From Candidatus Limiplasma sp. (GTDB taxonomy: Bacteria > Bacillota > Clostridia > Christensenellales > Aristaeellaceae), in the NCBI GenBank assembly GCA_963675655.1, contig OY776489.1, positions 2,967,501 through 2,991,500 of the forward strand: a stretch of 24,000 nucleotides of DNA, read 5' to 3'. Below, piece after piece: positions 1 to 22,342 of the stretch. Below the pieces are notes generated by a model, which was not told the DNA's origin, made no database searches, and worked only from the letters and a program-made list of their open reading frames with translations. Position 1 is the first letter of the stretch. Each line of letters starts with the position of its first letter. The position numbers were made by a program, and so were the translations under genes.

Positions 1-1251
1 CCACGAAAGCGACATCAGCGATACGATCGGGGTATTCTGCATCAAAAAGTTTACAATTAAAGAGAATGCGACAAAGGCAATACAAAGGGCACGCATCGTC
101 CAAACGGTTGTTTTTGGCTTCATTTTGGGCGCTATTACGCCCAGTAGATCGACGGAGATAACCGAGGAGGAGGAAAGCACCAACGCGGTTAACGTGGAAA
201 TACTGGCGGATAACAGCAGTACGACGAATAGTCCCAGCATTGCATCCGGAATGCCGACGACAGTCGTATCGGTTAGCATGGTCGGCATAATCTGATCCAT
301 TGCCATTTGCCCGCTCTTTACCAGCGCAGCCATCGTGGTGGTACCATCCGCAGAAGCAATTTTACTAAGCACAACACGCCCGAAGCTGCCGGCGAAGTAT
401 GCACCGCCCGCAACGATAAACGCAAAAACAGTCGAAATAACCGTTGCGCGGGTTACGCTTTTTTCATCCTTAATCGCAAAGAATTTATGAATCATCTGTG
501 GCATACCCAGTACGCCCACAGAGGTAAGAATTACGTTACTGAGCAGCCAAAGTTCTTTCCCTTTCGGCGGCATAAGCGTATTCATGTTCTGTCCGCCTAT
601 TTCTTCCGTACCCAGCAGATTCAGCGCTGTTGCAGTGCCCCCTGCAGCCTTTACAATATAAACAACAATGGCTGTGATGCCCACCAGCATAATCAGTCCT
701 TGAATAAAATCCGTAATCGCCGTGGCTTTGTATCCGCCCGCAAACAGATAAATGGAAGCAAGCAAGGCAATACCGATTACGCACCATGTATAATCAAAGC
801 CAAACGCTTTGCTGAACATATTGCCAAGTCCTTTATATACGCTTGCGCTATAAGGCAGCAGGAAGATGAAAATCATCAGGCTTGCTAATACCTTTAATGT
901 TTTGCTCTGGTAGCGCTTCTCAAAGAAGCTGGGCAGTGTGGCTACTTGTAGGCGTTCCCCCATGCGACGCGTTGGCCGCGCCAACAACGCCCACGCCAAT
1001 AGGCTGCCGATCAGCGCATTACCGATTCCCAGCCAGATAGCCGATAAACCGGCATTCCAGCCCATGGAACCTGCATAGCCAACGATGATAACGGCAGAAA
1101 AATAACTGGCCCCATAGCTGAGTGCGCTCATCCATGGGCCAACGCTTCTGCCTCCTAAGAGGAAGCCGCTTAATGTCAGGTTTTTTCGTGCTGTGAAGAA
1201 GATAACAACAATCAACATGATTGCATAAGCTACCAATACTACTAACTTCAT
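1..1251 (-). CDS. Sodium:solute symporter (SSF) family transporter; N-terminal 417 codons only, the C-terminus lies beyond the window edge
   Basis: Absent from the ORF track because it runs off the edge. Hand translation from the ATG at 1251-1249 stays open to position 1: MKLVVLVAYAIMLIVVIFFTARKNLTLSGFLLGGRSVGPWMSALSYGASYFSAVIIVGYAGSMGW... This shows the LGGRSxGP...AS..S signature of PutP/PanF-type SSF carriers and many hydrophobic helices. A GGAAGG SD-like element lies about 14 nt upstream of the ATG. Confidence 0.8.
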   Translation of the reverse strand, partial: MKLVVLVAYAIMLIVVIFFTARKNLTLSGFLLGGRSVGPWMSALSYGASYFSAVIIVGYAGSMGWNAGLSAIWLGIGNALIGSLLAWALLARPTRRMGERLQVATLPSFFEKRYQSKTLKVLASLMIFIFLLPYSASVYKGLGNMFSKAFGFDYTWCVIGIALLASIYLFAGGYKATAITDFIQGLIMLVGITAIVVYIVKAAGGTATALNLLGTEEIGGQNMNTLMPPKGKELWLLSNVILTSVGVLGMPQMIHKFFAIKDEKSVTRATVISTVFAFIVAGGAYFAGSFGRVVLSKIASADGTTTMAALVKSGQMAMDQIMPTMLTDTTVVGIPDAMLGLFVVLLLSASISTLTALVLSSSSVISVDLLGVIAPKMKPKTTVWTMRALCIAFVAFSLIVNFLMQNTPIVSLMSLSW

Positions 1252-1438: not shown

Positions 1439-2497
1439 TCAGCCTTTATCGTCTTTTTCAATAAAAAGGGTTTGCGTCGGATAGGCAAAATCAAACCCGG
1501 AATCGTCAAATTGCTGTTTGATTTTCAGGTTTACTTCCTGCTGCCTGTCCATAAATAAATTATAATCCGAGCTAAGGATGAAGTACACAATTTCAAAATT
1601 CAGGCTGGAATCGCCAAAGGAAGAAAAATGTACGCGTCCAAACGTCGTATCCGGTACGGAATCAATGATCTCTTTTAATATGCCTGGAATTTTTTTCAAT
1701 TCCTCTGCAGTGGTCTGATAGGTAACCCCTATATGAAATAGTACGCGGCGTTTCTCAAGCGTTTTATAATTTTGAATACGGGAACTTGTTAAATCTTTAT
1801 TGGACATTATCAACTGTTCCCCATCCAATGTACGAAGTCGCGTGGTTTTCACCCCAATGTGCTCAACCGTGCCGGACTGATCGCCAACAACAATATAATC
1901 CCCAATTTCGAATGGACGGTCAAAGAAAATCGTGAAATAGCAAAAAATGTCTTCCAGCACAACTTGTGCGGCAAAGGCAACCGCCAATCCGCTAATACCA
2001 AGCCCGGCGATCAGTGCATCGATTTTTACACCGATGTTTTGCAGGAAGAGGATAACGATGATGCTCCACATCAGGAACTTCACGATGCCAACAACCCATT
2101 GCACGGCAACTTTGCTGTCTCCGGCTGTTTTTTGTTGCCGCCAATATTGCTTGATCGCAAACGTGGCAATATGGGAGAAAAATAAGCCGCCAACGATCGT
2201 AGCAAATACACGGATCGCGATATTAAGCATCGTGGTAAGGGCTGCTGAAAGAGTCAGCATCCTCGCGCAAAGTACAAGCACTGTAAAGTACAATACCGGG
2301 ATAATGTACTTTTTCACACTGTGAATCAGCATCCCGACGATAGGTTTTTTGGATTTTTCCCAAATTGCCTGCAAACGCTTCATCCCCGCTTTGGTAACCA
2401 ACCGAAGGATAAGCAAGCTCCCCAGCAGCGTTGCAATGAAGATCAGGTATTGCTGTATGGTATTTTGAAAAATAACATAATTTAAAACGACTGTCAC
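1439..2497 (-). CDS. Mechanosensitive ion channel family protein (MscS-like)
   Basis: 352-aa ORF with N-terminal TM helices followed by the MscS beta-domain pattern ...DRPFEIGDYIVVGDQSGTVEHIGVKTTRLRTLDGEQLIMSNKDL... GTG start with GAGGAGG 6 nt upstream. Confidence 0.9.
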   Translation of the reverse strand: MTVVLNYVIFQNTIQQYLIFIATLLGSLLILRLVTKAGMKRLQAIWEKSKKPIVGMLIHSVKKYIIPVLYFTVLVLCARMLTLSAALTTMLNIAIRVFATIVGGLFFSHIATFAIKQYWRQQKTAGDSKVAVQWVVGIVKFLMWSIIVILFLQNIGVKIDALIAGLGISGLAVAFAAQVVLEDIFCYFTIFFDRPFEIGDYIVVGDQSGTVEHIGVKTTRLRTLDGEQLIMSNKDLTSSRIQNYKTLEKRRVLFHIGVTYQTTAEELKKIPGILKEIIDSVPDTTFGRVHFSSFGDSSLNFEIVYFILSSDYNLFMDRQQEVNLKIKQQFDDSGFDFAYPTQTLFIEKDDKG

Positions 2498-2542
2498 AAC
2501 AGGCCTCCTCTCGCAGAAGTTATTTATAATGTAATGCTTTCT

Positions 2543-2998
2543 TTACGCCTGCTCCAGGTATGCGATAATCTCCCCAGCATTTAAATCCGGTTTAACCTTT
2601 GCGTAGATCTTTTCAATCTTACCTTCTTCATCAATCAGGTATGTGGTGCGCACAACTCCAAAAGAGGTTTTCCCGTATAACTTTTTCTCCTGCCATACTT
2701 CATACGCTTTTATCGCATCCAAATCTGGGTCTGACAGAAGAATGAAAGGTAAACCATATTTTTCTTTAAATTTAGTATGAGAGTTTTGACTGTCTTTGCT
2801 TACACCAATCACTTCCACGCCATGGGATTGCAGCACATCATATGCCATTTTAAAGGCCTGTGCTTCGCGCGTACAACCCGGCGTATTATCACGCGGATAA
2901 AAATACAGTACAACTTTTTTCCCGATAAAATCAGTCAGACTATGGTGAATCCCTTTTTCGTCCGGCAAGGTAAATGCCGGCGCCTTTTGACCTTCCAT
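2543..2998 (-). CDS. bcp: Thioredoxin-dependent thiol peroxidase (Bcp-type peroxiredoxin)
   Basis: Contains the peroxiredoxin active-site block VVLYFYPRDNTPGCTREA. I place the start at the ATG at 2998 (MEGQKAPAFTLPDEKG...) because GAGGAG lies about 13 nt upstream. The 18-codon extension in the ORF track is basic and lacks an SD. Confidence 0.9.
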   Translation of the reverse strand: MEGQKAPAFTLPDEKGIHHSLTDFIGKKVVLYFYPRDNTPGCTREAQAFKMAYDVLQSHGVEVIGVSKDSQNSHTKFKEKYGLPFILLSDPDLDAIKAYEVWQEKKLYGKTSFGVVRTTYLIDEEGKIEKIYAKVKPDLNAGEIIAYLEQA

Positions 2999-3069
2999 TA
3001 ACAAAGTAACTTCTCCTCGCTTTCTTTTTTTGGCGGTGTGCCGATTTATCATTGCTATACATTACAAAT

Positions 3070-3098
3070 AGTATACCATAAACGACTGTTGGGGTTAA
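3070..3098 (-). promoter_or_regulatory. Candidate promoter for bcp (TTAACC-17 nt-TGgTATACT, extended -10)
   Basis: The minus strand reads TTAACCCCAACAGTCGTTTATGGTATACT, about 70 nt upstream of the bcp start. Confidence 0.4.
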
Positions 3099-3184
3099 GC
3101 GTCTTGAGGATTTTATAATGAGGTTTTAGCGATAGAGAAAGAAATTTAAATACTCAAATAGTGCTTTGATTCCCTAAAGCTTTG

Positions 3185-4633
3185 CTATATTTTACTGAAT
3201 AACTTTACAAAGAAATCATAGCAGCGGTTCACGTTTACAATGCTGATACATTCGTTTGCCCCGTGTATTTTTGATAAATCATCATTTTCAATTAAATATG
3301 GTGTAAAACGGTAAATATGATCGCAAACCGTTTCATACTTTCGGGCATCTGTCCCCGCCATCACCAGATATGGCGCAACAATTGCGTTGGGGCATACCTC
3401 GTGTATCTGCTCCGCTACAAAGCGATAAGCATCGCAATCTGTCGGAGAAATCGCGGAAGGATCGTCCAGTACGATCGGTTCCAGCATAACAGGCAACTTC
3501 CTCAGCACTTTACGGATATGGGCAAGAAGATCATTACCATTTTCGCCGGGCAATATCCTGCAATTGATATAAGCATTGGATTGTTGTGGTACCACATTGG
3601 GTGCCTGGCTGCCTTGCGCCATAGTCACGGCTACGGTTGTACGCAATAGTGCGCTGCCGGTTTTTGTTCTCGAAAAAACAGCGATAAACAACGGTTGAAA
3701 CAGCCATAGATTTGCAAGAATCACACGATCCAACCCCTGCATGTAAGGGCCTAACTGGTATAAAAAGGCTCGCGTTGCATCTGTAAGGCGAGGACGGAAC
3801 GGATGCGCTTCCAACTTGCATAGTGCTTTGGCTAAAATGCCCAGCGATGTATGGCGTGCAGGCATGGAGGCGTGACCACCGTCTTGATTCACCGTCAAGC
3901 GAATATTGGCAAATCCTTTTTCGCCTATCCCTACCATTGCAATCGGTTCTTGAATCCCATCCAGCACATTACGGACAATGCATCCGCCTTCATCCAGTAC
4001 AAATTCAAATTGCAGATGCTTTTCCTGCAAGTACTTTACAATTTGCATTGCACCGGCTTCGCCGTTAATTTCTTCATCATGCCCAAAGGCGAAGTATACA
4101 TCACGCTTCAGCACATTTCCTGATTGGAGGATGTTTTCCAGCGCTTCCATAGCGGCGATGAAATGCGTTTTAGTATCCAATGTACCGCGGCCCCACACAT
4201 AGCCTTCCTGAATATCGCCGCTAAAGGGTGGATAACGCCATTCATTCGCGCTGTTCGGTTCGATGGGGACGACATCCATATGCGCAGTAATGAGAATTGG
4301 CTTTTTATCTGCCTGTGAGTTGGGCGATGCATAATGATAAAGCAAGCTATATTGATTAATAACGGTTTTTTCGCATTGCTGATGCACCAATGGAAACATC
4401 GTTTCCAAAAGTGCATGAAGCTGTAAAAATGCTTCACCGTCTGTTTGCTTTCCATCCATCTTAGATATCGTTGCAATACGAACAGCCCTTGCCAGTTTTT
4501 CCGCAACCGGCATAGCGTTAGATTCTGGATAGCTTTGACCTTGCTGCTGAACTGCGGGTTTAAAGTGAATGGTACGAAGGGCAACAATGATTGCTAAGAT
4601 AAGAAGCATTACGATGAAAATAATAATAGGCAC
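3185..4633 (-). CDS. M20 family metallopeptidase (carboxypeptidase/dipeptidase-like) with an N-terminal membrane anchor
   Basis: 482-aa ORF with M20 metal-site blocks ILITAHMDVVP, WGRGTLDTK and FGHDEEINGEAGA. The N-terminus MPIIIFIVMLLILAIIVAL is a single TM helix. The GTG start has only a weak SD, so the exact start is uncertain. Confidence 0.85.
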   Translation of the reverse strand: MPIIIFIVMLLILAIIVALRTIHFKPAVQQQGQSYPESNAMPVAEKLARAVRIATISKMDGKQTDGEAFLQLHALLETMFPLVHQQCEKTVINQYSLLYHYASPNSQADKKPILITAHMDVVPIEPNSANEWRYPPFSGDIQEGYVWGRGTLDTKTHFIAAMEALENILQSGNVLKRDVYFAFGHDEEINGEAGAMQIVKYLQEKHLQFEFVLDEGGCIVRNVLDGIQEPIAMVGIGEKGFANIRLTVNQDGGHASMPARHTSLGILAKALCKLEAHPFRPRLTDATRAFLYQLGPYMQGLDRVILANLWLFQPLFIAVFSRTKTGSALLRTTVAVTMAQGSQAPNVVPQQSNAYINCRILPGENGNDLLAHIRKVLRKLPVMLEPIVLDDPSAISPTDCDAYRFVAEQIHEVCPNAIVAPYLVMAGTDARKYETVCDHIYRFTPYLIENDDLSKIHGANECISIVNVNRCYDFFVKLFSKI

Positions 4634-4660
4634 TTTAGCACCGGCTTTCTGCTTTGGTTA

Positions 4661-6136
4661 TTAAAAGGGACCGTATTGAATTGCGACGCCAATCAACAGA
4701 AATACACAAGCGAGTACCAGTGAAAATAACTGTAGCTTAATCGTCCACTTCATCCACTTGGTGTATGTTACTACGGTTAATCCCAGGCAGATGAGCAATA
4801 CAGGGTTTGTCGGGTAAATGATATTGGAAAATCCGTCACCAAAGCAAAATGCAAGCACTGATGTTTGCCGGGTGATTCCTACTAAATCGGATAACGGCGC
4901 GATCAGCGGCATAACTAAGAAAGCTTTCGCGGACGAGGAACCAACAAACAATTCCAGCAGCAGAATAAGCGCGTATACCAGCAAAATGGCGACATACGGG
5001 GATGTAGTCATAATCGCATTCGCTGTATAATACAAAATAGTATCCATGATTCCGCCTTCACTGATGATGTATTTAACGCTCATCGCCAGTAGAATCAGCA
5101 CAATACCAGGAGCAATGCCTAAAGCTGCTTTCCAAAGGATGGCCAGTCTTTCCAAAAGGGGTATTTTTACAATTTTAGCGGCAACCAGTCCCCCAACCAG
5201 CAATAAAATACCTAAGAGGGGTAAAATCAAATCCGAAAGCAGCGGCACAAAAGACGCTGCGATAATCAGAAGTAAGATGACAATAACAAATACAGTAAAA
5301 GTGATAGCGGCACGGCGAATCCGGGAATATTGCTCCGGCGTTTTTTCGCTCAGCATCATCTGCACGCTGTCTATATCCCGGTATTTTTCGCGCAGGTGAA
5401 CATCGTCACCGTATATTAATGATTTTGTCGGCTCCTTCTCGATTCTCTTTGCATATCGATACAGAAAGAAGAATACAACGCCGTAATAGATGAGGAAGAT
5501 GATTAACCTGTACCCAAAACCGGAATACAATGGTAAATCGGCAATTTCTTGCGTGATGGCGATTGAAAAAGGGTTGGATATTGCGGCCGTAAAGCCAAAA
5601 CAGGAAGCGAGTAAGCTCATACCGAGCCCAACCAGCGAATCCCAGCCAAGGCAATACGCCAGCGCGATAATCATCGGGACTAAAGCTATATTTTCTTCAA
5701 ACGTGCCTAAAACAGCGCCCATCAGCATAAAGAAAAATACAATGATCGCCATCAGCAGATATTTATAATTGCTGAAGCGATTCACAATTTTGATGATGAA
5801 CAGCGACATAATATTGCTCTTTTCCAGCAGTGAAAATGCCATGCTCACCGCTAAAAGAAAAAAGATAATCACGGCAATAACGGCGCCATCCGTGCTGAAC
5901 AGTACTTCAAACGGTGCGGTAAACCAGCGGTATACCGGCAGCCTTACAGCGCTTGTGAATTGAAAAGAGCCTTGTATCAATACCTCTTTTCCATTGACTG
6001 TGTCCCGTTGATAGCTTCCAGTAGGGATGATTTGCGTGAGAATTCCAACAGCGATAATAAGACAAAATAAAATAGAAAAAGCAATGAGAAATGTTCTCTT
6101 GCCAATTTTAAGCGACGCTTCTTCATGTGACTGCAT
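4661..6136 (-). CDS. yfcC: YfcC-family (DcuC-like) polytopic membrane carrier
   Basis: 491-aa hydrophobic ORF. Its C-terminal block SSSAKAFLVMPLIAPLSDLVGITRQTSVLAFCFGDGFSNIIYPTNP closely resembles the E. coli YfcC segment as I remember it (...[40 protein letters not shown]...). ATG start with AGGGAGGA 10 nt upstream. Confidence 0.85.
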   Translation of the reverse strand: MQSHEEASLKIGKRTFLIAFSILFCLIIAVGILTQIIPTGSYQRDTVNGKEVLIQGSFQFTSAVRLPVYRWFTAPFEVLFSTDGAVIAVIIFFLLAVSMAFSLLEKSNIMSLFIIKIVNRFSNYKYLLMAIIVFFFMLMGAVLGTFEENIALVPMIIALAYCLGWDSLVGLGMSLLASCFGFTAAISNPFSIAITQEIADLPLYSGFGYRLIIFLIYYGVVFFFLYRYAKRIEKEPTKSLIYGDDVHLREKYRDIDSVQMMLSEKTPEQYSRIRRAAITFTVFVIVILLLIIAASFVPLLSDLILPLLGILLLVGGLVAAKIVKIPLLERLAILWKAALGIAPGIVLILLAMSVKYIISEGGIMDTILYYTANAIMTTSPYVAILLVYALILLLELFVGSSSAKAFLVMPLIAPLSDLVGITRQTSVLAFCFGDGFSNIIYPTNPVLLICLGLTVVTYTKWMKWTIKLQLFSLVLACVFLLIGVAIQYGPF

Positions 6137-6372: not shown

Positions 6373-8061
6373 TTAGTTAGGAAGCAAGCAGAAAGTATCG
6401 CATACGTCTCCGCTTTCATTATTCAGCTTCTCAATACAATAGATAAACGCTTCCACCGCTTCGGGATCGAACTGTGTCCCGCTGCAGCGTTCCAACTCAA
6501 TCAGCGCCTGTTTAAACGTCTTGGTTTTCTGATAAGGGCGAAGCGAGGTCATCGCGTCAAAAGAGTCGACAACAGCCAGAAGCCTGGCAAGATAATGAAT
6601 ATTCTCGCCTTTCAGCCCCAGCGGATACCCCTTGCCGTCATAACGCTCATGGTGCTGCAATATAATCGGCCGTATTTCTTCCATGGCTTCATTATTCTTA
6701 ATAATATCCACAGCGTATTGAGGGTGATTCTTTAAAATCTCCCATTCCTCATTGGTAAGGGGTTCGGTTTTATTCAATATCTCTTCCTTGATATTGATTT
6801 TACCAATATCATGCAGATAAGCGGAATAAACCAGTTTACGCTTTTCGTCAGGGCTGATATTCAGCTTATCCGCTAAAAGATTCGAATAGAATACGACGCG
6901 TTCTACATGCCGGTAGGTATACTTGTCCTTCGCGTTAATTACAGCGATGAGTGTTTTGATTTGGGTAATCACTTCCGGCGCAAAGTGGAATTCATCCAAA
7001 ATAGAGAAGTATAATTCTACGCGATTTTTGCACAGGAATTTTGCGCGGTAACAAGCATCATCTGCGCTCTTAATCAGCTCTGCGTCCGTTTTCACCTTGC
7101 TGGGGAAAGAGGATACACCTACGGACACCGTAAGATTGCCGCCTGGTAAATTTTCCTGCCCATCAAACGGATATTCCTGAACAGCACGGCGTAATTTTTC
7201 CGCCTCCGCAAAAGCTTGCTCCTCATCATAATAGCTGAGCAAGACGGCAAATTCTTCCCCTCCATATCGGGCGATGAACGTTTCTTTAGCGAAGGTTGCC
7301 TTCATAATCAAAGCGATAGACCGCAGTACATCGTCGCCTTTTTGATGGCCATACAGGTCATTGTAGTACTTGAAATTATCAATATCAATAAAAAGCAGAG
7401 AAACCGGAAAATGCTTTTCTTCCGCTTCGCGTATCTGACTTGAAAGGTACTCATAGAAATATCGATGGTTATACAGTTCGGTAAGCCCATCGATATTGGC
7501 GATTTCCTTCAAGTAATCGATGTGCTTTTTACGAATGTCGTCATAGTATCCCACGGTCCAGGAAATAATCAAAAATACGCAAGCCAGAATAATATCGCTT
7601 TCAAAGTAAGTATTGACTGCCCCTCTGGGAGCAAATATTAAATCTACTCCTAAAACTATAGTAGCGGAAAGACCTGCTACAGTCATACTTGTTTTTTGGC
7701 TGCATTCAATACTGGTAAATAAAATTACAAATATAAATAAAAATTTGTAGCTGCTTTCATAAGAGCCTGTCATAACCACAGAAACCAATGCAATTGACAT
7801 GGATACAACTGGATCAATTAATTTTCGCGTTACTGATTTATTCGCAATTTTCGATTGCAGATAAATCCACAGCATATAAATAACCAGAATGATCAGGAGA
7901 ATGGAAATTGTTAAGACCCCGTGCGTGACATAGGATAAAAAGCCGGGCATCTTTGAATAGTATTGCAAAAACGCGATCGCTGGGAAAGCAAGCGACGATA
8001 TTTTGATAATATTCAGTATTTGTTGAATTTGTTCTTTATTATCCTTTTCCAAGATCGTCAC
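6373..8061 (-). CDS. Polytopic membrane protein with a GGDEF (diguanylate cyclase) domain and an HD-GYP (c-di-GMP phosphodiesterase) domain
   Basis: About six predicted TM helices, then ...DGLTELYNHRYF...RYGGEEFAVLL (GGEEF at 7249-7263). These are followed by HDIGK (6798-6812) and HHERYDGKGYP (6622-6654). The start is uncertain: GTG at 8061 or TTG at 8052, with GGAAGG upstream, or the ATG at 7950. The 622-aa track ORF starting at 8241 is rejected because that stretch is agrD read in another frame. Confidence 0.85.
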   Translation of the reverse strand: MTILEKDNKEQIQQILNIIKISSLAFPAIAFLQYYSKMPGFLSYVTHGVLTISILLIILVIYMLWIYLQSKIANKSVTRKLIDPVVSMSIALVSVVMTGSYESSYKFLFIFVILFTSIECSQKTSMTVAGLSATIVLGVDLIFAPRGAVNTYFESDIILACVFLIISWTVGYYDDIRKKHIDYLKEIANIDGLTELYNHRYFYEYLSSQIREAEEKHFPVSLLFIDIDNFKYYNDLYGHQKGDDVLRSIALIMKATFAKETFIARYGGEEFAVLLSYYDEEQAFAEAEKLRRAVQEYPFDGQENLPGGNLTVSVGVSSFPSKVKTDAELIKSADDACYRAKFLCKNRVELYFSILDEFHFAPEVITQIKTLIAVINAKDKYTYRHVERVVFYSNLLADKLNISPDEKRKLVYSAYLHDIGKINIKEEILNKTEPLTNEEWEILKNHPQYAVDIIKNNEAMEEIRPIILQHHERYDGKGYPLGLKGENIHYLARLLAVVDSFDAMTSLRPYQKTKTFKQALIELERCSGTQFDPEAVEAFIYCIEKLNNESGDVCDTFCLLPN

Positions 8062-8079
8062 ATCGCCTTCCAAGATCGT

Positions 8080-8120
8080 GAATAGGTAAAGGAAGATGGG
8101 AGGCGACGCTATCGCCCCCC
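8080..8120 (-). terminator. GC-rich hairpin with a U-rich tail immediately after agrD (terminator or attenuator candidate)
   Basis: The minus strand reads GGGGGGCGA-TAGCG-TCGCCTCCC, a 9-bp stem with one G.U pair at 8098-8120, followed by ATCTTCCTTTACCTATTC. It lies between the agrD stop (8132) and the candidate starts of the GGDEF/HD-GYP gene. Confidence 0.5.
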
Positions 8121-8131
8121 ACTGCGTCTGC

Positions 8132-8254
8132 TTACTTGTTGCGCAGAGACGCGGGCTCCTGCGGCTGGTAGAAGAACCAGTAGCAGGCAGAGGAAGCGAC
8201 CAGCGCCGCAACAACGGTGCTGACAGCGGCGATAACGCCATAGAACTTCTTCAT
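8132..8254 (-). CDS. agrD: AgrD-type cyclic (thio)lactone autoinducing peptide precursor, 40 aa
   Basis: Too short for the ORF track; translated by hand codon by codon: MKKFYGVIAAVSTVVAALVASSACYWFFYQPQEPASLRNK*. The ATG overlaps the agrB stop (ATGA), and GGAAGGAGG lies 7 nt upstream. It has an amphipathic leader, a single Cys, a hydrophobic 5-residue CYWFF segment and a Pro/Glu-rich tail, which is the clostridial AgrD layout. Confidence 0.85.
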   Translation of the reverse strand: MKKFYGVIAAVSTVVAALVASSACYWFFYQPQEPASLRNK

Positions 8255-8898
8255 AGATGTGCCTCCTTCCTGAAGAATTTAGGTAAATCATTCAGCTTAT
8301 TGAGCAGAATGGCACCCAACGGTGTGAGCGTAAGGGATTGCCAAGCCGTACCCAATAAAAGGCTGGTCCCATAAGAATGAAATGCCGGGTACCGGCTTGC
8401 AAAATAGTAGAAAACAAGCTGCAAGGCAAAATACACAGACACAATAATTGTACTGCCTTTGCGCATGCGCTTGATTTTGTCTTTATTGGTTATCGGTTTA
8501 TTCGGTGAATCAATTGGTACATAGCGATAAATGATCCAGTACGTAAGCATATAGCAAATGATCATCACAATGAGTACAAGAACAGGATCGATAATCGTAG
8601 CTAATATACGCGATGCTAACGCCGCAACTGTACAGTAAATAACGCTGACCACTGTACAGAAATCAGCATCATATGCGTGTGCGCCTCCGCTGTATTTTCG
8701 AAAGATGCTAACCGCAAAACATACGATCATTGCTTCTACAGGCGCACCGACAATAAAACCAAAAATCAATGCAAGTATAATGGTAATTCCTATTTGGACA
8801 ATTGCCAATAAACCATAAGCTACAACCGCTTCGCGTTCCTCATCATATCCTAGAGAAACAGCAATTTTATTGGCCAGCCTCCTTACCATTTTCTCCAC
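8251..8898 (-). CDS. agrB: AgrB-family membrane endopeptidase (AgrD processing and cyclisation)
   Basis: 215-aa polytopic ORF with the AgrB signature FRKYSGGAHAYDADFCTVVS (conserved GG-H...C catalytic His/Cys pair). It sits immediately upstream of, and translationally coupled to, agrD. Confidence 0.85.
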   Translation of the reverse strand: MEKMVRRLANKIAVSLGYDEEREAVVAYGLLAIVQIGITIILALIFGFIVGAPVEAMIVCFAVSIFRKYSGGAHAYDADFCTVVSVIYCTVAALASRILATIIDPVLVLIVMIICYMLTYWIIYRYVPIDSPNKPITNKDKIKRMRKGSTIIVSVYFALQLVFYYFASRYPAFHSYGTSLLLGTAWQSLTLTPLGAILLNKLNDLPKFFRKEAHL

Positions 8899-9411: not shown

Positions 9412-9969
9412 TTATTGCTTTTGTCGGTCCGTAAAACGTAAATTTACCGCACGAATCATTGAGTAAAGCATAATACATACGAACAAGTGTATTAGTACAT
9501 CCCCCGCACTCAGAATACAGTAGCCATAGTCGATAAAATCTGTTAAGAATTTCAGCTTGGTTTCCGGTCCGCCTAAAGTGTGCATCGTGTCTGCTGTGGA
9601 AACCATCTCCGGCGTAACATACCCTGTCAGATAAGATAGTGATGGGAAAACAGGCATTTGTCCATTGTTTTGCGCAATGGCCAGCTTGTTGAGCAATGTA
9701 CCGGCGCCAATACATACAGAACCTGCAATCGCTGGTTTATACAATTTAAAAACAAATATTGCAAATAAAAATGAAAGTATAACAGCAGGTTCGGTGTACG
9801 GTACCAGTTGCACAAACATATAATTCCTAAGAAAAATACTTGCCTGAAAAACGACCAGCACGCACTGCATGATTAACACCGGATAAAAGGTCCATGTTTT
9901 GAAGAGATATTTCAGTTTGTAATGCTTTAACTTTGCGATTATGCATACCAGAATGATTTCGACAACCAT
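9412..9969 (-). CDS. Polytopic membrane protein, DUF5317-like
   Basis: I place the start at the ATG at 9969 (AGGAGG 8 nt upstream) rather than the track's GTG at 9978. Blocks ...LLNKLAIAQNNGQMPVFP... and ...TKLKFLTDFIDYGYCILSAGDVLIHL... match my recollection of the DUF5317 family. The family assignment is from memory and is not verified. Confidence 0.6.
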   Translation of the reverse strand: MVVEIILVCIIAKLKHYKLKYLFKTWTFYPVLIMQCVLVVFQASIFLRNYMFVQLVPYTEPAVILSFLFAIFVFKLYKPAIAGSVCIGAGTLLNKLAIAQNNGQMPVFPSLSYLTGYVTPEMVSTADTMHTLGGPETKLKFLTDFIDYGYCILSAGDVLIHLFVCIMLYSMIRAVNLRFTDRQKQ

Positions 9970-10128
9970 GGTATGCACCTCCTGCCTGCGTGTTTTACGT
10001 CAACAAATCTAGCATACCAAATACATTCTGAAAAAACAACCTGTATATCCGGTATGTTTTCATGCCATTTTGATGTGTATTAATAGAACACATTTCTGAT
10101 AATGAATTATTCAGTGACTTTAGGTATT

Positions 10129-10208: not shown

Positions 10209-10244
10209 GAAAAAATCCATCATACCAAATTATGATATGATGGA
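10209..10244 (-). terminator. Rho-independent terminator ending the polysaccharide operon
   Basis: The minus strand reads TCCATCATA-TCATAATTTGG-TATGATGGA (9-bp perfect stem, 10216-10244) followed directly by TTTTTTCTGTTTTT. It lies 32 nt after the stop at 10276. Confidence 0.85.
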
Positions 10245-10275
10245 AAACTGTAAATGTGCTGTTATTTGTATAACA

Positions 10276-12543
10276 TCATTTTAACACGCTACCCAATGCT
10301 GCGAATTGATAAGGATCGTCCTGATACTTCCTCTCCATTTCGCTCAGGTAGATATCCAATGCAGCTGCTGTATAGATGCTATTATCAGACATGTGCATAA
10401 CCAGTACTGCACCGCTCTTTGTATACTTTTTCAGGTTGCTTGCCAGTTTATCTGCGCTGGAGGCTTTATAATCCTGACTTGAATAACTGCCGGATACTGA
10501 GAACAGATAGCCACAATCAAACACCTTTGTTAAGCCGCTTTTACTTACAGCCAGCGTTGGCGGGCGGAACAAACGTACCAATGCAGGTTGTCCACCCACG
10601 GATACATCCCCGATAATGGCTTGAAGTGCGTCGTAGGAGTTAATCAATTCGCCTTCCAGCTCATCCAATTGTTCGTTGCTAAGTTCTGTAAACTTCTTTC
10701 CTGTGCCGACGTCGTTTGAAAGCTGGAAATGCGAATACGTATGGCTTGCTACATTGTGCCCCGCAATCGCAATGGAACGCAGCAAATTTGGATTATACTG
10801 CACATTCTTTGCCACGACAAAGAATGTGGCCTTAGCGTTATGAGCTTTCAATACATCCAGTATCTTTGTGATGGTTTCATCCGTTCCCCAGTCATCAAAG
10901 GTTAAAAAGACCATATTCTGATCGTTGGGTACAAGCCCGGTTTTATCCAGGCGCTTAATCTCATCCTTCGTAAACCCCGGCAGGAAATTGGACGAACTGA
11001 CCCAATCTACGCCGATATAGCGTGTTGCAATCGCCGTCATCACATCGCCGGTAAGCTGCCCCGGATATATTTTATCCTTTACCGCAGAGAGAATAGAACT
11101 ATCCGCCAAAGGGTACTGATACGTATATTCACTGTTGTTAGCAATCGCCGTAAGGGATTTCAGGCTATAGATATTACGGTTTTTCGCAATCAGACCGATC
11201 AGTTCACCTAGCAACTGATTGCTTTTTTGGTACTGGTTCATCTGAAAATGAATGATTTCGCCCCGCTGTAACATACCTTGATTTTCCGGCAGCAGGTCTT
11301 CCAGTATCGCTTCCGCATCCGTTGCGCGAATATCATTGGTACGTACGGCGTTTACCATCGAGGATGCAAGCATATAACCGCCTGCACCGCAAGCGCGTTT
11401 GAGCAAACTGTTCGCGTTGCCATACACAGGCCGTACCGCCATATCATCCGTGTAAGTATATAAAGTACGTATAGTTTCTTCGGTTTTCATGATCTGCAGC
11501 AGCATTGCCTCGGCATTTGAATAAAGAGAAGGCTGTATAGCGATACCCAGACTTTGTCCCGCGTCTAAAATCTGCTGTATTTCATCTGTATAGCGGGTTG
11601 CTTCATCCAACGTAACAAAGAAGGTTCCGGTACCTTTTACGGTTTTTAATGTTTGCAAAACACCGCTTAACTCCGCTTGATTGCCAAGTCCGGAAAAGGT
11701 GAACGCAACGGCTCTTTCTGTTGTGTACACCCTTATCATCGCATCAGCTGAATCATCGTTTTCCTGCAAAAGTGCTTCAGAACTCGCGCCTAAATCGGTT
11801 GAGGCTAATGCAGAACATATTGCAGAAACCGCTGTGGATGCGCCGGCTTCTTTTGCAGTAAGCTCTACACAGAGAATAGAACCTCTAACTAGGCCATCCA
11901 CAGTTTTTTTAGCTATTGTACTTGTTGGAATATCGGCAAGCGTAATGGTTTTTGTCGGTACAACCACCGTATCCATAGAGCTGGCGTATGCAGCGGCTAA
12001 AAGCTCGTCATTTGCCGATTGCGGTGATAAGACCTGCGAAGGCCATAGCCCCACCTCGTTTTGTATTGTACCGCCTGAGCGGACAAAATCAGACACAATG
12101 CTCTCGACCGATGCGGATGTTACCGTAGATCCGTTTCCTTCGTACACAACGCCGACTACATAACCGGCATTGGCAATCATCCCAAGGCTCTCCTTATACT
12201 CGGATGCATCTTGCCCAGAGATGAAGAAAGAGGCGATAACATCGTTGCTTTCCATGGCATTGATCAGATTTTGTGTGGTTTGGGAATCGCTTAAACCTTT
12301 AAAAACCAGTTCAACCTTTTGCGACGTATCGTCACTTGCGGTTGTTCTTAGTAAAGCGATATCATCCTCGCCACGGTTTTGGTAATTCGTGACCGCTTCA
12401 TTGATGCGAATAATGGTTTGCTCTGATTGAGAAACGGGTACGATCGCACGCTGATCATCCGATCGGTACATTTTTACCGCTAAAAAGCAGCCGGCGATTA
12501 CCAGGAGAAAGAATACGGTATGCCGTAATTGTTTTTTCCACAT
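10276..12543 (-). CDS. Secreted or lipid-anchored triple NodB-module protein; only the C-terminal CE4 polysaccharide deacetylase domain is intact (paralog B)
   Basis: The start is taken at the ATG at 12543 (MWKKQLRHTVFFLLVIAGC...), which aligns with the paralog's N-terminus and has AGGAGG 13 nt upstream. There is a possible lipobox, IAGC. The C-terminal CE4 motifs are intact: LTFDDWG (10888-10902), SHTYSH (10729-10743), LFRPP and LVMHMSD. Two upstream NodB-like modules have VFKGL and TFSGL in place of TFDDG and lack the His-His motif. Confidence 0.85.
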   Translation of the reverse strand: MWKKQLRHTVFFLLVIAGCFLAVKMYRSDDQRAIVPVSQSEQTIIRINEAVTNYQNRGEDDIALLRTTASDDTSQKVELVFKGLSDSQTTQNLINAMESNDVIASFFISGQDASEYKESLGMIANAGYVVGVVYEGNGSTVTSASVESIVSDFVRSGGTIQNEVGLWPSQVLSPQSANDELLAAAYASSMDTVVVPTKTITLADIPTSTIAKKTVDGLVRGSILCVELTAKEAGASTAVSAICSALASTDLGASSEALLQENDDSADAMIRVYTTERAVAFTFSGLGNQAELSGVLQTLKTVKGTGTFFVTLDEATRYTDEIQQILDAGQSLGIAIQPSLYSNAEAMLLQIMKTEETIRTLYTYTDDMAVRPVYGNANSLLKRACGAGGYMLASSMVNAVRTNDIRATDAEAILEDLLPENQGMLQRGEIIHFQMNQYQKSNQLLGELIGLIAKNRNIYSLKSLTAIANNSEYTYQYPLADSSILSAVKDKIYPGQLTGDVMTAIATRYIGVDWVSSSNFLPGFTKDEIKRLDKTGLVPNDQNMVFLTFDDWGTDETITKILDVLKAHNAKATFFVVAKNVQYNPNLLRSIAIAGHNVASHTYSHFQLSNDVGTGKKFTELSNEQLDELEGELINSYDALQAIIGDVSVGGQPALVRLFRPPTLAVSKSGLTKVFDCGYLFSVSGSYSSQDYKASSADKLASNLKKYTKSGAVLVMHMSDNSIYTAAALDIYLSEMERKYQDDPYQFAALGSVLK

Positions 12544-12676
12544 GGTGCAATTCATTCCTCCTGTTTTCATATGAAATGCGTCGTTATAGACTTTACATGG
12601 TGTTGATTTAATAAAGCGTAATGGGAAAAGCATGGTTGAGTAGGATCACTATTAGTATAGCTGTTTTTACCAGAAA

Positions 12677-14953
12677 CTACAACGCATCATTCAAGCCAAT
12701 AAACTGATAAGGCTCTTCAGCGTTTTCCGCTTCCATCACCGTCAGGTATAAATCCAGCGCTTCTGCGGTATACTGACTGGTGTCCGACATATGCATTAAA
12801 AGAATCGCGCCGCTTTTTGTATTCTTCTCCAAACTGGCGGCTAATTTCTCTGCGCTGACAGCATCATAGTCGTGGCTGGAATAGCTACCGGATATGGAGA
12901 AAGTAAAACCACAATCCAACACCGCTTCTATCCCTCTTTTACTTACCGCTAAAGTCGGCGGCCGAAACAACAGAGATAGCGATGGTTTATCCCCAGACTT
13001 TACATCACCGACAATATGCTGTAATACATTATAAGATGTCGTCAATTCCGCCTGCAATTCCGTCACCTGCTGCGAGGTTAAATCAGTATACTTTAGCTTG
13101 CTACTCTTTGTGTCCACATTTGCCAATGGTGTATGTAAATGGGAATGGCATCCTATTGTATGGCCCTCAACTGCAATGGCACGAAGTAAGTTGGGATTAT
13201 ACTTCACTTTCCCGGTAAGGATAAAGAAGGTTGCTTTTGCGTGATGCGCCTTAAGCACATCCAGTATAGCCGTTATCGTTTGGTCTGTGCCCCAGTCGTC
13301 AAACGTAAGAAATACCCTGTTAAAATTATTCACGATGAGTCCCGTTTTATCAAGCCGTTTAATCTCATCCTTGGTAAAACCGGGTAAATACTGCGAAACC
13401 GATACCCAATCCGTGCCAATGTATCTTAACTCAATCGAAAGCTCGGTATCACCGGTCATTTGCCCTGGATAGATTTTATCCAATACTTCGGGCAGAATAT
13501 CGCTGTCTGCGAGGGGATACTGATATACGTAATCCGTGTTATTCACGATCGCCAAGATGGGCTTTATGCTATAAATATTCCGCTCTGTAGCAATGAGCAG
13601 TACCAATTGGCCAAGCAATTCATCACTTTTTTGATACTGATTCATGAGGAAATGGACAATTTCTCCTCGCTGCAACACACCGGCGGCTTTTGGAAGAATA
13701 CTTTCGACAATCGCTTGAGCATCGGTAGCGCGGGTATCATCGCTACGTACTGCATTTACCATAGCAGAAACCAGCGTGAAGCCTCCTGCACCACAGGCTT
13801 GCTTAAGCATCTGGGTAGCATAGCCGTAAATCGTACGCACAGGCAACGCATCTGTATAGTGAAAAATGCAAGACAGGTTTTCCTGTATGCTTAGCATTTC
13901 TTCCAGCAGCGTAGCGGCATCTTTGCTTTCTGTGGTTTGTACTGCAATCCCCAAACTATGCCCATACAACAATACTTGTGATATTTCTTCCGGGTGATGG
14001 TTAATGTCATCCTGCGATACAAAGAACGTCGCTTTCCCGCTCACTGCATCCAATGCTTCTAAAACGCTTTGCAATTCAGCATCATTGCCCAAACCATAAA
14101 AGGTAAATGCTACTGCCCGTTCTGTGGTATATACCTGCGTAATCGGCTCATTTGCCTGTGTCTCTCTTGCTAATAGTTCTTTGGTATAAGCCTGCAGATC
14201 TGTATTCGCCAGTGTCAGGCAGAAAGCGGAAAAACCGTTTGTATTCCAGTTGGCATCTGTCTGGTTAGGCAACTCGATACATACAATTTCTTCGCGTTTC
14301 AGGGCCGCAACTTGCGTTTCTGCATCCTTTTGGGTGTCTATTGCATCCAATTGCAGCGTTGTACTTGGTATAACAATCGTATCCATATTGCAGGCAAACG
14401 CGATTGTTGCCAATGCTGTATCTTTAGTTGACTGTGCCATGATTTTTGCAGGCCAAATGCCGGTTAGCTGCTGTATTTGCTCTCCGGTCTGCACCAGCTG
14501 GGTAATCAGGCCCTCAGCTGTTTCATCATCCGTCACCGTACCTTGATCGATCGCAATGCCGATAGAATACCCAGATTCTACAATTTGCGATAAACTTGCG
14601 GGATATGCCTCAACATCACTCGCCGATACAAAAAAAGATGCGGTTAAACCATTTTGCGCAATGATGCTTAACATACTTCGCGTCGTGCGAATATCGCTTA
14701 ATCCCCGCATGACGATTTCGGCTTTCTCGCGGATGTTCTCTCCGGCTTTTTTCCGTAATATTGCCGTATCGCCAATACCATGCTGATGATATCGCTCAAT
14801 CGCCGTGCTAATTTGCTCGGTCAGCTGTTGCTCCGGTGAAGGTGTCGCCTCAGTATCGCGCTGCTCTGATGGGAACACTTCCGCCGCATATAAGCTGCCC
14901 GCAATCGCCAGCATCACGATAACAGCGAAAATAAGCTGCTTTTTCCACGCCAA
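12677..14953 (-). CDS. Secreted triple NodB-module protein; only the C-terminal CE4 polysaccharide deacetylase domain is intact (paralog A)
   Basis: 758-aa ORF with a TTG start and AAGGGAG 7 nt upstream, one nt after the preceding stop. It has an N-terminal signal/anchor. The C-terminal domain has LTFDDWG (13292-13306), CHSHLH, LFRPP and LLMHMSD. The two upstream modules are degenerate (IVMRGL, FTFYGL). By eye it is about 55-70% identical to the 10276-12543 product. Confidence 0.85.
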   Translation of the reverse strand: MAWKKQLIFAVIVMLAIAGSLYAAEVFPSEQRDTEATPSPEQQLTEQISTAIERYHQHGIGDTAILRKKAGENIREKAEIVMRGLSDIRTTRSMLSIIAQNGLTASFFVSASDVEAYPASLSQIVESGYSIGIAIDQGTVTDDETAEGLITQLVQTGEQIQQLTGIWPAKIMAQSTKDTALATIAFACNMDTIVIPSTTLQLDAIDTQKDAETQVAALKREEIVCIELPNQTDANWNTNGFSAFCLTLANTDLQAYTKELLARETQANEPITQVYTTERAVAFTFYGLGNDAELQSVLEALDAVSGKATFFVSQDDINHHPEEISQVLLYGHSLGIAVQTTESKDAATLLEEMLSIQENLSCIFHYTDALPVRTIYGYATQMLKQACGAGGFTLVSAMVNAVRSDDTRATDAQAIVESILPKAAGVLQRGEIVHFLMNQYQKSDELLGQLVLLIATERNIYSIKPILAIVNNTDYVYQYPLADSDILPEVLDKIYPGQMTGDTELSIELRYIGTDWVSVSQYLPGFTKDEIKRLDKTGLIVNNFNRVFLTFDDWGTDQTITAILDVLKAHHAKATFFILTGKVKYNPNLLRAIAVEGHTIGCHSHLHTPLANVDTKSSKLKYTDLTSQQVTELQAELTTSYNVLQHIVGDVKSGDKPSLSLLFRPPTLAVSKRGIEAVLDCGFTFSISGSYSSHDYDAVSAEKLAASLEKNTKSGAILLMHMSDTSQYTAEALDLYLTVMEAENAEEPYQFIGLNDAL

Positions 14954-14954
14954 G

Positions 14955-15980
14955 TTAATATTCTCCCTTTATATCAGGCGTAATAAGCTCACTTTTCCAG
15001 TCGTTTACATCGTTGCCGCCCAATCTGAAGAAATCAAACGAAGAAAAACCGTTTTGCACGCACGTGTCGCGCCATATCGCGAGCGTTTCCGCATCTGCAT
15101 ACCAAACTTCGTGCGTTTCCCCATCAAAATCATAAATTGCGCACAACGCGCCGCTGTCGGCATCCCGTATGGGCATTGCATCTGCTTCGCACAGGTTCTC
15201 TTCGGCTTGCTGCTGTGTTAGCGAAGTGATCTCATCCCCGTGCCAATCAAATCCCCCGGTTGCAAACGCCATACTTACATTGGGCAAAAGCGACTGGTAA
15301 TAAGCACAGGTCTCATCTAAAAAGGCAATGTCAGCTTTGGGCCCCGGGCCGCTGTGATACCCAAACAGGTTATAACACATTACACTGTATTCCGGTCCCT
15401 GCGGTAAATCAACATAGTTAGGAGCATTCCACGGCAGTACAATACGTAATTGAATACCATCGCGCTCGCAAACTGACCATGCCTGTTGAATAAAGGTTGC
15501 GTATTGTTGCCAAAGTTCCGTATCTGTGCGTATATTCTCATAATCCAGTTCAATCCCAGTAAGACTATATCGATCAATCAGGCTTATGAGTGCTTCCAGA
15601 TGTAACGCCATAGATTCTTCATCTGCAAAGAGACGGCGAAGCAAGTCGGCATTTTTATTATCATAAACGTTGGTCTCGATTTCGATATCATTTACCACAG
15701 ATAGGTAAACATCCGTACCGGTATCCATGCAGTCTTTTTGAAGCGCGCGCAGCATGGTTTCGGTTTCATCCAGCATCAACAAATCGTCATTCGCATCGAA
15801 GATACACGCAAAAGCGATCACTTTATCCAGCTTATCCGTAAGTGAATTCAATTCCAGTATAGAATCGTCATACTCCCAATAAGGCATCCATGCGCCGTAT
15901 TGATAATTCTCCGCTATTGCGCCGGAGTACACCCCCGCCAGCAGTATAAGAACTGCAAATAGGCAAAGTTTCTTCTTCAC
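14955..15980 (-). CDS. Secreted GH18-like (chitinase-fold) glycoside hydrolase
   Basis: GTG start with AAGGAGG 7 nt upstream. The signal peptide is MKKKLCLFAVLILLAGVYSGAIA. LTGIELDYE aligns with the GH18 DGxDxDxE block and retains the D-x-E catalytic pair. The overall pattern resembles YaaH/YdhD-type GH18 proteins. Confidence 0.65.
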   Translation of the reverse strand: MKKKLCLFAVLILLAGVYSGAIAENYQYGAWMPYWEYDDSILELNSLTDKLDKVIAFACIFDANDDLLMLDETETMLRALQKDCMDTGTDVYLSVVNDIEIETNVYDNKNADLLRRLFADEESMALHLEALISLIDRYSLTGIELDYENIRTDTELWQQYATFIQQAWSVCERDGIQLRIVLPWNAPNYVDLPQGPEYSVMCYNLFGYHSGPGPKADIAFLDETCAYYQSLLPNVSMAFATGGFDWHGDEITSLTQQQAEENLCEADAMPIRDADSGALCAIYDFDGETHEVWYADAETLAIWRDTCVQNGFSSFDFFRLGGNDVNDWKSELITPDIKGEY

Positions 15981-16063
15981 GCATGATCCTCCTTGGACGT
16001 GTATATTTCGCCATCACAAGACTATTGGTTCAAACGCCATGCATATTGATCGTATAATGCAGA

Positions 16064-18007: not shown

Positions 18008-18124
18008 CTGTATCTGCTTCTCCTTCCGGATGGCAATGATTGGTCTTTATCAGTTCGGTTGATACTAAGTATAGGCAAGTATAATCTGTATGCAGTAATC
18101 CTGCTTTACCATAACGATTAACCA

Positions 18125-19909: not shown

Positions 19910-19940
19910 GACTTAAAACCTCTTCGCTCGTTGCGTGCGG

Positions 19941-21611: not shown

Positions 21612-22318
21612 GACAATACTTCCCCCGACTCCTCATGGGTCGCAGAGGGGTCTGCAACGCGGTTCAGCGACATGTGCGAATTATCAATCTGTTGCAGCAC
21701 ATCGATAGAAGCGTCCAATTCTCTTTCCATACCGCGGAATTGCTCGGCAAGGTCTTTTTTAAACTGCAAAGCGCTGTAGTAAGCTGCTCGGCAAGCAGAA
21801 ACCAGTTGCCTGCGCTGTTCATTGGCCTGCTGCATCATCCGCTCACTGTCCATATTAGCCCGGGCAACAATTTGATCTGCCCGTTGCACAGCTTGCGCCA
21901 CTACATCTTCAGCACTCTGTTTTTCCAGATAAGCAATTTGCTCGTTCATATGGTCGATCCGGTTTTGCAGGCGTGCCACCTCTGCGTTCAGCTGAGTGAT
22001 ATGCTCGCTTTGCGCAGTATTTTCTCCGCTGGCTTGGGTAAGCTCATCACCAATCGCAGCTAGCTTATGCTGTTGATTGGTGATGATGCTTTCCTGCTGC
22101 TTTGTTTTTTCGCGCAGGGAAACAAGCATCGCTTCCTGGCTTTTATTTGTATTAAGCAGTTGCTGGTATTGCGTTTCTAACTTTAACTGCTTGCTACGTT
22201 CAATTTCTGCTTCATCCGCCAGATCGTTCAAGTGGCGGTCAACCTCGTCAACCAGATAATATTTTCGCCGCTTTACTGTAAATCCGTAATCTGCGTAATC
22301 ATCAATCGTCTTGTTCAT
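21608..22318 (-). CDS. DivIVA-domain coiled-coil protein
   Basis: The N-terminus ...YGFTVKRRKYYLVDEVDRHLNDLADE fits the DivIVA N-terminal pattern (F..x.RGY..xEVDxfLd). The remainder is a long Q/E/A-rich heptad-like coiled coil. Confidence 0.7.
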   Translation of the reverse strand: MNKTIDDYADYGFTVKRRKYYLVDEVDRHLNDLADEAEIERSKQLKLETQYQQLLNTNKSQEAMLVSLREKTKQQESIITNQQHKLAAIGDELTQASGENTAQSEHITQLNAEVARLQNRIDHMNEQIAYLEKQSAEDVVAQAVQRADQIVARANMDSERMMQQANEQRRQLVSACRAAYYSALQFKKDLAEQFRGMERELDASIDVLQQIDNSHMSLNRVADPSATHEESGEVLS

Positions 22319-22342
22319 CTGGTGGATCGCCTCCTTGTTTGA

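Follow-up and report, generated by a model that had tools for sequence, protein, structure and literature searches.

Introduction

Among characterised agr systems, the closest relative of the locus described here is that of Clostridium perfringens, whose operon has the order CPE1563-CPE1562-agrB-agrD and carries no agrCA genes (PMC2706048). Its autoinducing peptide (AIP) is a tail-free ring of five residues, CLWFT, followed by a histidine in the AgrD precursor, and VirS/VirR, which is unlinked, is accepted as the receptor for the AIP response. Many agrBD loci of clostridia, pathogens among them, encode no receptor of their own, and how their signals are read is debated. Here we analyse an agr locus from Candidatus Limiplasma sp., found on a 24-kb stretch of contig OY776489.1 (assembly GCA_963675655.1, forward-strand positions 2,967,501 to 2,991,500; hereafter the window, whose numbering is used throughout). 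In this locus a putative agrD gene of 40 codons (8132..8254, minus strand) precedes a gene for a protein that joins a membrane domain of six transmembrane helices (6TM) to GGDEF and HD-GYP domains.

The AgrD peptide in itself is ordinary, one more member of a known family with an uncharacterised CYWFF core, and public metagenome-assembled genomes already contain annotated, near-identical copies. The peptide extends the list of uncharacterised pherotypes by one, from a gut and digester lineage that is uncultured or little studied, and the gene context matters more than the peptide. A conserved 6TM protein directly after agrD, the attachment of either kinase or cyclic di-GMP (c-di-GMP) outputs to it, and the divergence of its membrane domain in step with the ring residues together provide a concrete and testable receptor candidate. 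If the proposal is true, a single protein would convert a peptide quorum signal directly into the synthesis or breakdown of c-di-GMP. Peptide quorum sensing would then act directly, through c-di-GMP, on the control of biofilm and matrix in Gram-positive anaerobes.

A putative agrD gene and the reading frame that covers it

An earlier sequence-only reading of this DNA had proposed an unlisted AgrD precursor of 40 residues at 8132..8254, hidden under a longer open reading frame (ORF) in another frame. The proposal is borne out by profile searches (the window was searched for domains with Pfam and NCBIfam) and by homologues encoded after agrB in other genomes. The gene translates from its ATG start into MKKFYGVIAAVSTVVAALVASSACYWFFYQPQEPASLRNK, which the earlier hand translation matches exactly. 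The AgrD-family hidden Markov model search that had been suggested as a check returned 51.2 bits with NCBIfam TIGR04223, the AgrD family of cyclic lactone autoinducer peptides (curated cutoff 19 bits; E 8.9e-14; profile positions 1-38 of 38). The coupling to agrB described in that reading is also present. The agrD ATG (8254-8252) overlaps the agrB stop codon TGA (8253-8251) in an ATGA arrangement, and a Shine-Dalgarno sequence, GGAAGGAGG (8262..8270, minus strand), can be read 7 nucleotides upstream of the ATG, within the 3' end of agrB. Its equivalent in relatives is AAGGAGG.

A search of 5.8 billion proteins gave eight AgrD homologues, 79-95% identical to the peptide. Several of them are named "cyclic lactone autoinducer peptide" or "AgrD protein" by NCBI and JGI, and several have the CYWFF core. 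In all relatives compared, agrD lies directly 3' of agrB on the same strand. A 100% identical AgrD occurs on a metagenome contig apparently from the same species as the window (L043), and another follows agrB in the Candidatus Limiplasma sp. locus L007. In L007 the peptide is identical while AgrB is 93% and the upstream protein P174 79% identical to their counterparts in the window, which indicates selection on AgrD. The agrD genes of the window and of the related locus L001 differ at 17 nucleotides, distributed 6/0/11 over codon positions 1/2/3, a pattern that argues for translation of this frame under purifying selection.

The partner gene agrB (8251..8898, minus strand) encodes a predicted membrane cysteine endopeptidase/cyclase of 215 residues, matching PF04647 with E 5.4e-38 over profile positions 2-185 of 185. 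In its translation, H74 and C81 lie 7 residues apart within GGAHAYDADFC, the same spacing as in the catalytic pair H77/C84 of Staphylococcus aureus AgrB. A comparison of the window AgrB with the PDB found nothing. Taken from the gene sequences and their relatives, 8132..8254 on the minus strand is very probably a functional agrD gene encoding a C. perfringens-type AgrD precursor and translationally coupled to an intact agrB.

The mechanical ORF list confirms that an ORF of 622 codons (6373..8241, minus strand) overlaps agrD by 110 nucleotides in a different frame. Its N-terminal extension (8053..8241, minus strand) is spurious and non-coding. In BLASTP comparisons, similarity to the orthologue starts only at residue 64, which corresponds to TTG 8052, and relatives have their ATG starts at the aligned position (MEKDNK... 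in the window, MDNDNK... or MDKDNK... in the others). The extension frame contains one stop in L007 and two in L003, and in L001 it has no ATG. It would also pass through a stable hairpin described below. Because similarity begins at residue 64 and the relatives carry stops or lack the ATG, we read the 622-residue ORF as an artefact of first-start-codon choice and the real gene as 6373..8052, with 559 codons. GTG 8061 was considered as another start for this downstream gene and rejected; it is in frame here and out of frame in L001.

The related expectation that automated annotation would probably miss agrD held only in part. Gene callers called the 40-residue agrD in L001-L006 and L043, and homologues had received names from NCBI and JGI; the gene was missed on L042 only. 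On that contig, which ends just past agrD, an antisense ORF of 92 residues was called instead (L042:5018-5296, minus strand, equivalent to window 8096..8374, plus strand). The agrD of C. perfringens strain 13 was likewise left unannotated in the first genome (PMC2706048). An ORF list built on first start codons can bury a signalling gene of 40 codons beneath an artefactual extension.

The predicted signal

More than 25 distinct AgrDs, collected from genome and metagenome loci, share a frame in which four hypervariable residues stand between ...VA[ST]SAC and [YH]QP[EK]EP[K].L... The ring residues seen in this family include YWFF, FWFF, FFFF, YIFI, ILFS, IWYL, WWAS and VWCV, between conserved flanks. 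In the window peptide this architecture is resolved into a predicted leader MKKFYGVIAAVSTVVAALVASSA of hydrophobic or amphipathic type, a ring C24-Y-W-F-F28 made of the cysteine and four variable residues, and a charged, proline-containing tail YQPQEPASLRNK that AgrB would recognise. The sequence-only reading had likened core and tail to those of C. perfringens, and the likeness persists in the wider alignment. The published ring CLWFT with its following histidine fits the family frame SAC-xxxx-[YH]QP, as do the published C. botulinum cores ...ACYWCVYQP and ...ADSACHLGI.

By the proposed maturation, AgrB, with its H74/C81 pair, would cut between F28 and Y29, remove YQPQEPASLRNK and close a five-residue ring from C24 to the carbonyl of F28. 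The leader would be cut right before the cysteine, after the invariant ...S-S-A, to release a tail-free CYWFF macrocycle. Removal at this point is suggested because the small residues S-x-A before the cysteine are invariant. Tail-free clostridial AIPs undergo an S-to-N acyl shift into homodetic cyclopeptides, and all clostridial AIPs detected in the study that described it were lactams without a tail (PMC8251862). Since tail-free clostridial AIPs behave in this way, the CYWFF thiolactone may rearrange likewise, and the stable product may be the homodetic cyclo(CYWFF) rather than the thiolactone. The two forms are isobaric, with a calculated [M+H]+ of 747.2959. Of the CYWFF thiolactone first predicted, the five-residue ring fits the family alignment and stands, and the thiolactone bond may give way to a lactam. 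With good support from this alignment, we infer an AgrB-dependent five-residue CYWFF macrocycle. The string CYWFF occurs in no paper of the searchable literature, in line with the earlier remark that it was not recognisable as a described AIP.

A conserved module with exchangeable outputs

Five genes make up the module, in the order DUF5317, P174, agrB, agrD and 6TM-GGDEF-HD-GYP, with agrD in fourth place. The same five genes, with a P174 of about 173 residues, are found on contigs carrying the close AgrD homologue P0004 and in eight GTDB species representatives. To avoid the bias of queries with agr genes, loci were also retrieved with the 6TM domain alone. A metagenome scan with the 6TM motif returned 27 loci of 24-61% G+C content, and agrD lay immediately upstream of every 6TM gene that was of GGDEF type or truncated by a contig end (25/25). 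Genes for AgrB, P174 and DUF5317 are further upstream of these 25 agrDs, where the contig reaches. Clostridia ranging from 24 to 61% G+C share this module.

The last gene of the module (6373..8052, minus strand, from the TTG 8052 start) encodes, by its domain matches, a 559-residue protein that is a candidate AIP receptor and c-di-GMP enzyme. Residues 1-185 (7498..8052, minus strand) form the N-terminal six-helix membrane domain recognised in the 6TM family search. They are followed by a GGDEF diguanylate cyclase domain at residues 185-339 (7036..7500, minus strand; PF00990, E 1.8e-42) and by an HD-GYP phosphodiesterase domain at residues 367-531 (6460..6954, minus strand; PF13487 HD_5, E 9.9e-39; PF01966). 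The active-site motif GGEEF is present (RYGGEEF in the orthologue alignment), and no RxxD I-site was seen upstream of it in the window protein. The HD-GYP motifs HDIGK and HHERYDGKGYP are intact. Judged by these residues, the catalytic motifs of both domains are intact, and both enzyme activities are predicted.

The 6TM domain family is small: at E<=1e-3, 1.84 billion proteins yielded 109 representatives. The 53 longer matches and the window protein were scanned for domains, and of these 54 sequences 32 have GGDEF (23-24 with HD-GYP as well) and 22 have HisKA/HATPase_c, often with PAS. PF25323, a PilS-like 6TM family, was matched weakly by 8/54, and the window 6TM protein itself has no match to it. 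Searched against a protein database, the 6TM profile gave only 7 close matches and no new context; against PDB sequences it gave noise only, and the PDB holds no solved structure for the 6TM or the AgrC sensor domain.

In several loci the gene after agrD is a kinase. Contigs L044 (262-4076) and L045 carry DUF5317, a P174-like protein of 153 residues, AgrB and a 41-residue AgrD, then a 6TM-PAS-HisKA-HATPase_c kinase, and in L046 an AgrD is again followed by such a kinase. The Clostridium-like contig L025 (9.3 kb, 24% G+C) has two agr loci that resemble the AgrD1/AgrD2 pair of C. botulinum, with AgrD cores SSACVWCVYQP and ADSACVAGIYQP. One of its agrDs precedes a 6TM-GGDEF-HD-GYP gene, and a P174-agrB-agrD set precedes a 6TM kinase (L025:7120-9036, within the locus 5814-9036). 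Between the two loci lies a third 6TM kinase (3732-5585). Alkaliphilus metalliredigens QYMF (L047, CP000724.1:1325098-1333513) encodes a 471-residue 6TM-HisKA kinase 1.1 kb from an agr locus made up of a 156-residue protein in the P174 position, AgrB and AgrD (...TSACAWGVYQPKEPKLLRK). Being cultured and fully sequenced, this organism is a possible experimental model for the idea of a 6TM receptor. The output domain is swapped on a shared 6TM membrane domain, being either a kinase or GGDEF-HD-GYP.

Covariation of ring and membrane domain and the proposed receptor

The slot directly after agrD is the usual receptor position in agr loci. The main argument for the 6TM domain as the sensor is that one membrane domain with two kinds of output fills this slot. 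Further indications come from orthologue pairs with a cytoplasmic-domain identity of at least 65%. When both members have the same ring, 6TM identity approximately equals cytoplasmic identity (mean difference -0.002, n=23), and when the rings differ, 6TM identity is about 11 points lower than cytoplasmic identity (n=69). The window protein thus compared has 65% 6TM and 80% cytoplasmic identity with that of L018 (ring FFFF), and 83% and 82% with that of L001 (ring YWFF). When ring distance was compared with 6TM distance in a partial Mantel test, with cytoplasmic distance as the control, r was 0.25 with a permutation p of 0.017; the reverse control gave r -0.06 and p 0.67. Positions that are invariant in YWFF proteins and changed in at least 3/6 of the others cluster at residues ~35-55, where the first outer loop and the beginning of the second transmembrane helix are predicted. 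From this analysis, the relation between 6TM domain and ring resembles the specificity pattern of AgrC and AgrD.

In the mechanism that we propose, the CYWFF peptide would bind the 6TM domain, and binding would shift the balance between the cyclase (GGEEF) and the phosphodiesterase (HD-GYP), so that cell density would be read out as c-di-GMP. More speculatively, the adjacent exopolysaccharide cluster (10276..21611), with its PilZ-domain glycosyltransferase, would be among the outputs and could be fed by this c-di-GMP.

Upstream genes, hairpins and surroundings

The genes neighbouring agr in the window are all on the minus strand. The module opens with a gene for a DUF5317 membrane protein (9412..9978, minus strand; PF17248, E 2.6e-23). 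Its start is uncertain, gene callers giving 185 residues, and it is conserved at the same position in relatives. The next gene, P174 (8867..9391, minus strand), overlaps agrB by 32 nucleotides and encodes a conserved polytopic membrane protein of 174 residues. It has no match in Pfam or NCBIfam, and none of its 49 homologues is named; in most related loci it lies upstream of agrB. Its AlphaFold2 model (pLDDT 78) has no fold match in the PDB, and the protein has no similarity to the 6TM domain. P174-like genes are also found directly upstream of 6TM kinases that have no agrBD (L035:4494-6845; L025:3253-5585). Because of these, we speculate that P174 may be a partner of the 6TM sensor rather than of AgrB.

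Terminator-like hairpins (10244..10216 and 8122..8096) flank the set DUF5317, P174, agrB and agrD. The upstream one, found by a terminator scan (10216..10244, minus strand), has a T-run, precedes the DUF5317 gene and would set the 5' limit of the agr transcription unit; promoter-like hexamers lie at 10305..10278 and 10246..10219. The downstream one (8096..8122, minus strand), from the same type of scan, begins 9 nucleotides after the agrD stop codon. It is a GC-rich stem of 12 base pairs with a loop of 3 nucleotides, followed by CTTCCTTTAC, and its arms GGGGGGCGA and TCGCCTCCC are like a Shine-Dalgarno and an anti-Shine-Dalgarno sequence; the U tract is weak. The RNA fold of this region has -33.7 kcal/mol (z -2.6), and a hairpin persists there in 12-13 relatives, with compensatory changes. 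By its sequence it looks like a terminator or an attenuator, and stabilisation of the mRNA is another candidate role. Since only 44 nucleotides separate it from TTG 8052, the 6TM-GGDEF-HD-GYP gene is probably expressed by read-through of the hairpin. Rfam searches around the agr locus returned nothing relevant.

No histidine kinase or LytTR domain was found in any ORF of at least 90 codons in the window, and genes of AgrC/AgrA type are also absent from the flanks of ±5 to 10 kb in relatives. Just upstream of the module lies the exopolysaccharide-type cluster (10276..21611, minus strand). At 18125..19909 it encodes a family-2 (chitin-synthase-like) glycosyltransferase whose N-terminal PilZ domain is a c-di-GMP receptor. 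The cluster also encodes four proteins with polysaccharide-deacetylase domains, one of which (19941..21611) is a fusion with a GDSL hydrolase domain; a weak, sub-threshold GH18-like match lies at 14955..15980. It adjoins the agr module only in this species and in L007, and not in more distant relatives.

Downstream, the genes at 1439..6136 (minus strand) are of housekeeping type and encode an anaerobic C4-dicarboxylate carrier of the DcuC family, an M20 peptidase, an AhpC/TSA peroxiredoxin and an MscS-type channel. L007 likewise has a DcuC gene behind the module, so that synteny with that Candidatus Limiplasma sp. reaches further than the module itself. Other ORFs (21608..23401, minus strand, and 307..888, plus strand) include one of 236 residues with a weak, sub-threshold DivIVA match and two of 352 and 193 residues without a Pfam family; they have no evident link to the agr module.

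Alternative explanations

Three alternatives concern the peptide itself. That the 40-codon frame is a chance ORF, and the 622-residue ORF a true gene with a long N-terminal extension, finds a starting point in the existence of the longer ORF with its own ATG. The extension, however, is not conserved among relatives, where it meets stops or lacks the ATG and where similarity begins at residue 64. It crosses a stable hairpin, and it is the agrD frame that matches the AgrD profile and shows substitutions biased to the third codon position. We give this explanation almost no credence, as the comparative data have refuted it already. An orphan agrBD remnant that makes no signal might be suspected from the absence of AgrCA in the window, but this is very improbable given a full-length AgrB with its His/Cys pair, an intact Shine-Dalgarno sequence with translational coupling, and an L007 AgrD kept identical, apparently by selection, as AgrB and P174 diverged. 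More weight is due to a mature signal other than the tail-free CYWFF ring, such as SA-CYWFF or SSA-CYWFF with an N-terminal tail, a six-residue ring or a lasting thiolactone. The N-terminal cleavage site of an AgrD cannot be read from its sequence, staphylococcal AIPs have tails of 2-4 residues and the AIP of C. acetobutylicum has a six-membered ring. Such forms are nonetheless unlikely here, since in C. perfringens the signal is most active as the tail-free 5-mer, the clostridial AIPs detected in PMC8251862 were all tail-free lactams, and the invariant S-A before the cysteine would fit a cleavage site with small residues at -3 and -1.

The main rival to a 6TM receptor is an unlinked two-component system of VirS or AgrC type. 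The AIP would then be sensed by a VirS/VirR-like pair or a remote AgrCA, and the 6TM gene would be a neighbour or a co-regulated output that senses something else. Several observations weigh for this rival or against our reading as a whole. The response of C. perfringens, with a related AgrD and the same layout, is attributed to VirS/VirR; agrD and the GGDEF gene have the terminator-like hairpin between them and may differ in expression; and agrBD is missing from the vicinity of some 6TM kinases (L035, L025:3732-5585 and the marginal family member P0113). An hhalign comparison of the 6TM profile with the N-terminal domain of S. aureus AgrC (the kinase half of the AgrC sequence used, residues 207-430, matched PDB 6e52 with E 1e-139) gave a probability of 0.3, that is, no detectable relationship, and the only family resemblance of the 6TM domain is to the PilS-type 6TM domain. 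The covariation is modest and its sample small, and partial Mantel tests are liberal when sequences share ancestry. The Pfam AgrD model did not match the 40-residue peptide even at E<=1, and peptide production, the mature form and binding to the 6TM domain are predictions from the genes. On the other side, agrD precedes the 6TM gene in all 25 of the GGDEF-type loci retrieved without agr queries, over 24-61% G+C, a 6TM histidine kinase occupies the same slot in other genomes, where a receptor is usual, divergence in step with the ring residues is seen in the 6TM domain but not in the cytoplasmic part, and the 44-nucleotide gap makes read-through of the hairpin likely. An unlinked sensor seems to us less likely than not, though a strong contender. 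That the 6TM-GGDEF-HD-GYP protein senses the AIP and shifts between making and degrading c-di-GMP is a proposal that we advance tentatively, at slightly less than an even chance. With a shade more reserve, it is possible that the 6TM family is a new class of receptors for cyclic AIPs with interchangeable outputs, and the missing locus-encoded sensor of agrBD loci of the C. perfringens and C. botulinum type. A linkage of C. perfringens-type agrBD to 6TM kinases or c-di-GMP proteins was not found in the searchable literature, in which older papers are covered only in part.

Comparison with known systems

The C. perfringens operon and the window locus both place two membrane-protein genes before agrB-agrD and have no agrCA, DUF5317 and P174 being presumed counterparts of CPE1563 and CPE1562 by layout only. 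Their AgrDs share the core and tail SAC-xxxx-[YH]QPEEP.SL and a ring of five residues. The rings differ, LWFT there and YWFF here, as do the hosts, Clostridium sensu stricto in one case and a Candidatus Limiplasma-like member of the Clostridia in the other, and here a 6TM-GGDEF-HD-GYP gene follows agrD. The agr-1 and agr-2 systems of C. botulinum and C. sporogenes belong to other species, and their published AIP cores fit the same AgrD subfamily. The contig L025 offers a parallel in its two such agrDs, one before a 6TM-GGDEF-HD-GYP gene and one before a 6TM kinase.

With agrBDCA of S. aureus, the locus shares the AgrB-AgrD pair, an AgrD built of a leader, a cysteine with four residues and a charged, proline-containing tail, the His/Cys spacing of AgrB, a hypervariable ring between conserved flanks and an adjacent membrane domain that diverges with the ring. 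Unlike in S. aureus, there is no AgrC (HPK10, HATPase_c_5) or AgrA (LytTR) in the window, the adjacent protein has an unrelated 6TM domain with c-di-GMP outputs, and the AIP is probably tail-free. The PilS-type 6TM kinases (PF25323) are likewise signalling proteins that begin with a membrane domain of six helices, but the 6TM family of the window is tied to agrBD and not to pilin genes.

Links between quorum signals and c-di-GMP are known from other bacteria. In Xanthomonas, the diffusible signal factor (DSF) acts through RpfC on the HD-GYP protein RpfG, and in Burkholderia the related signal BDSF is received by RpfR, a PAS-GGDEF-EAL protein. Both cases resemble the proposed system in that a diffusible quorum signal governs c-di-GMP turnover, and in RpfR receptor and enzyme are a single protein, as we propose for the 6TM-GGDEF-HD-GYP protein. 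DSF and BDSF are fatty acids perceived through PAS or kinase domains in Gram-negative bacteria, whereas in the Gram-positive Candidatus Limiplasma sp. a cyclic peptide would be perceived through a 6TM domain, by a link that is so far a genomic one.

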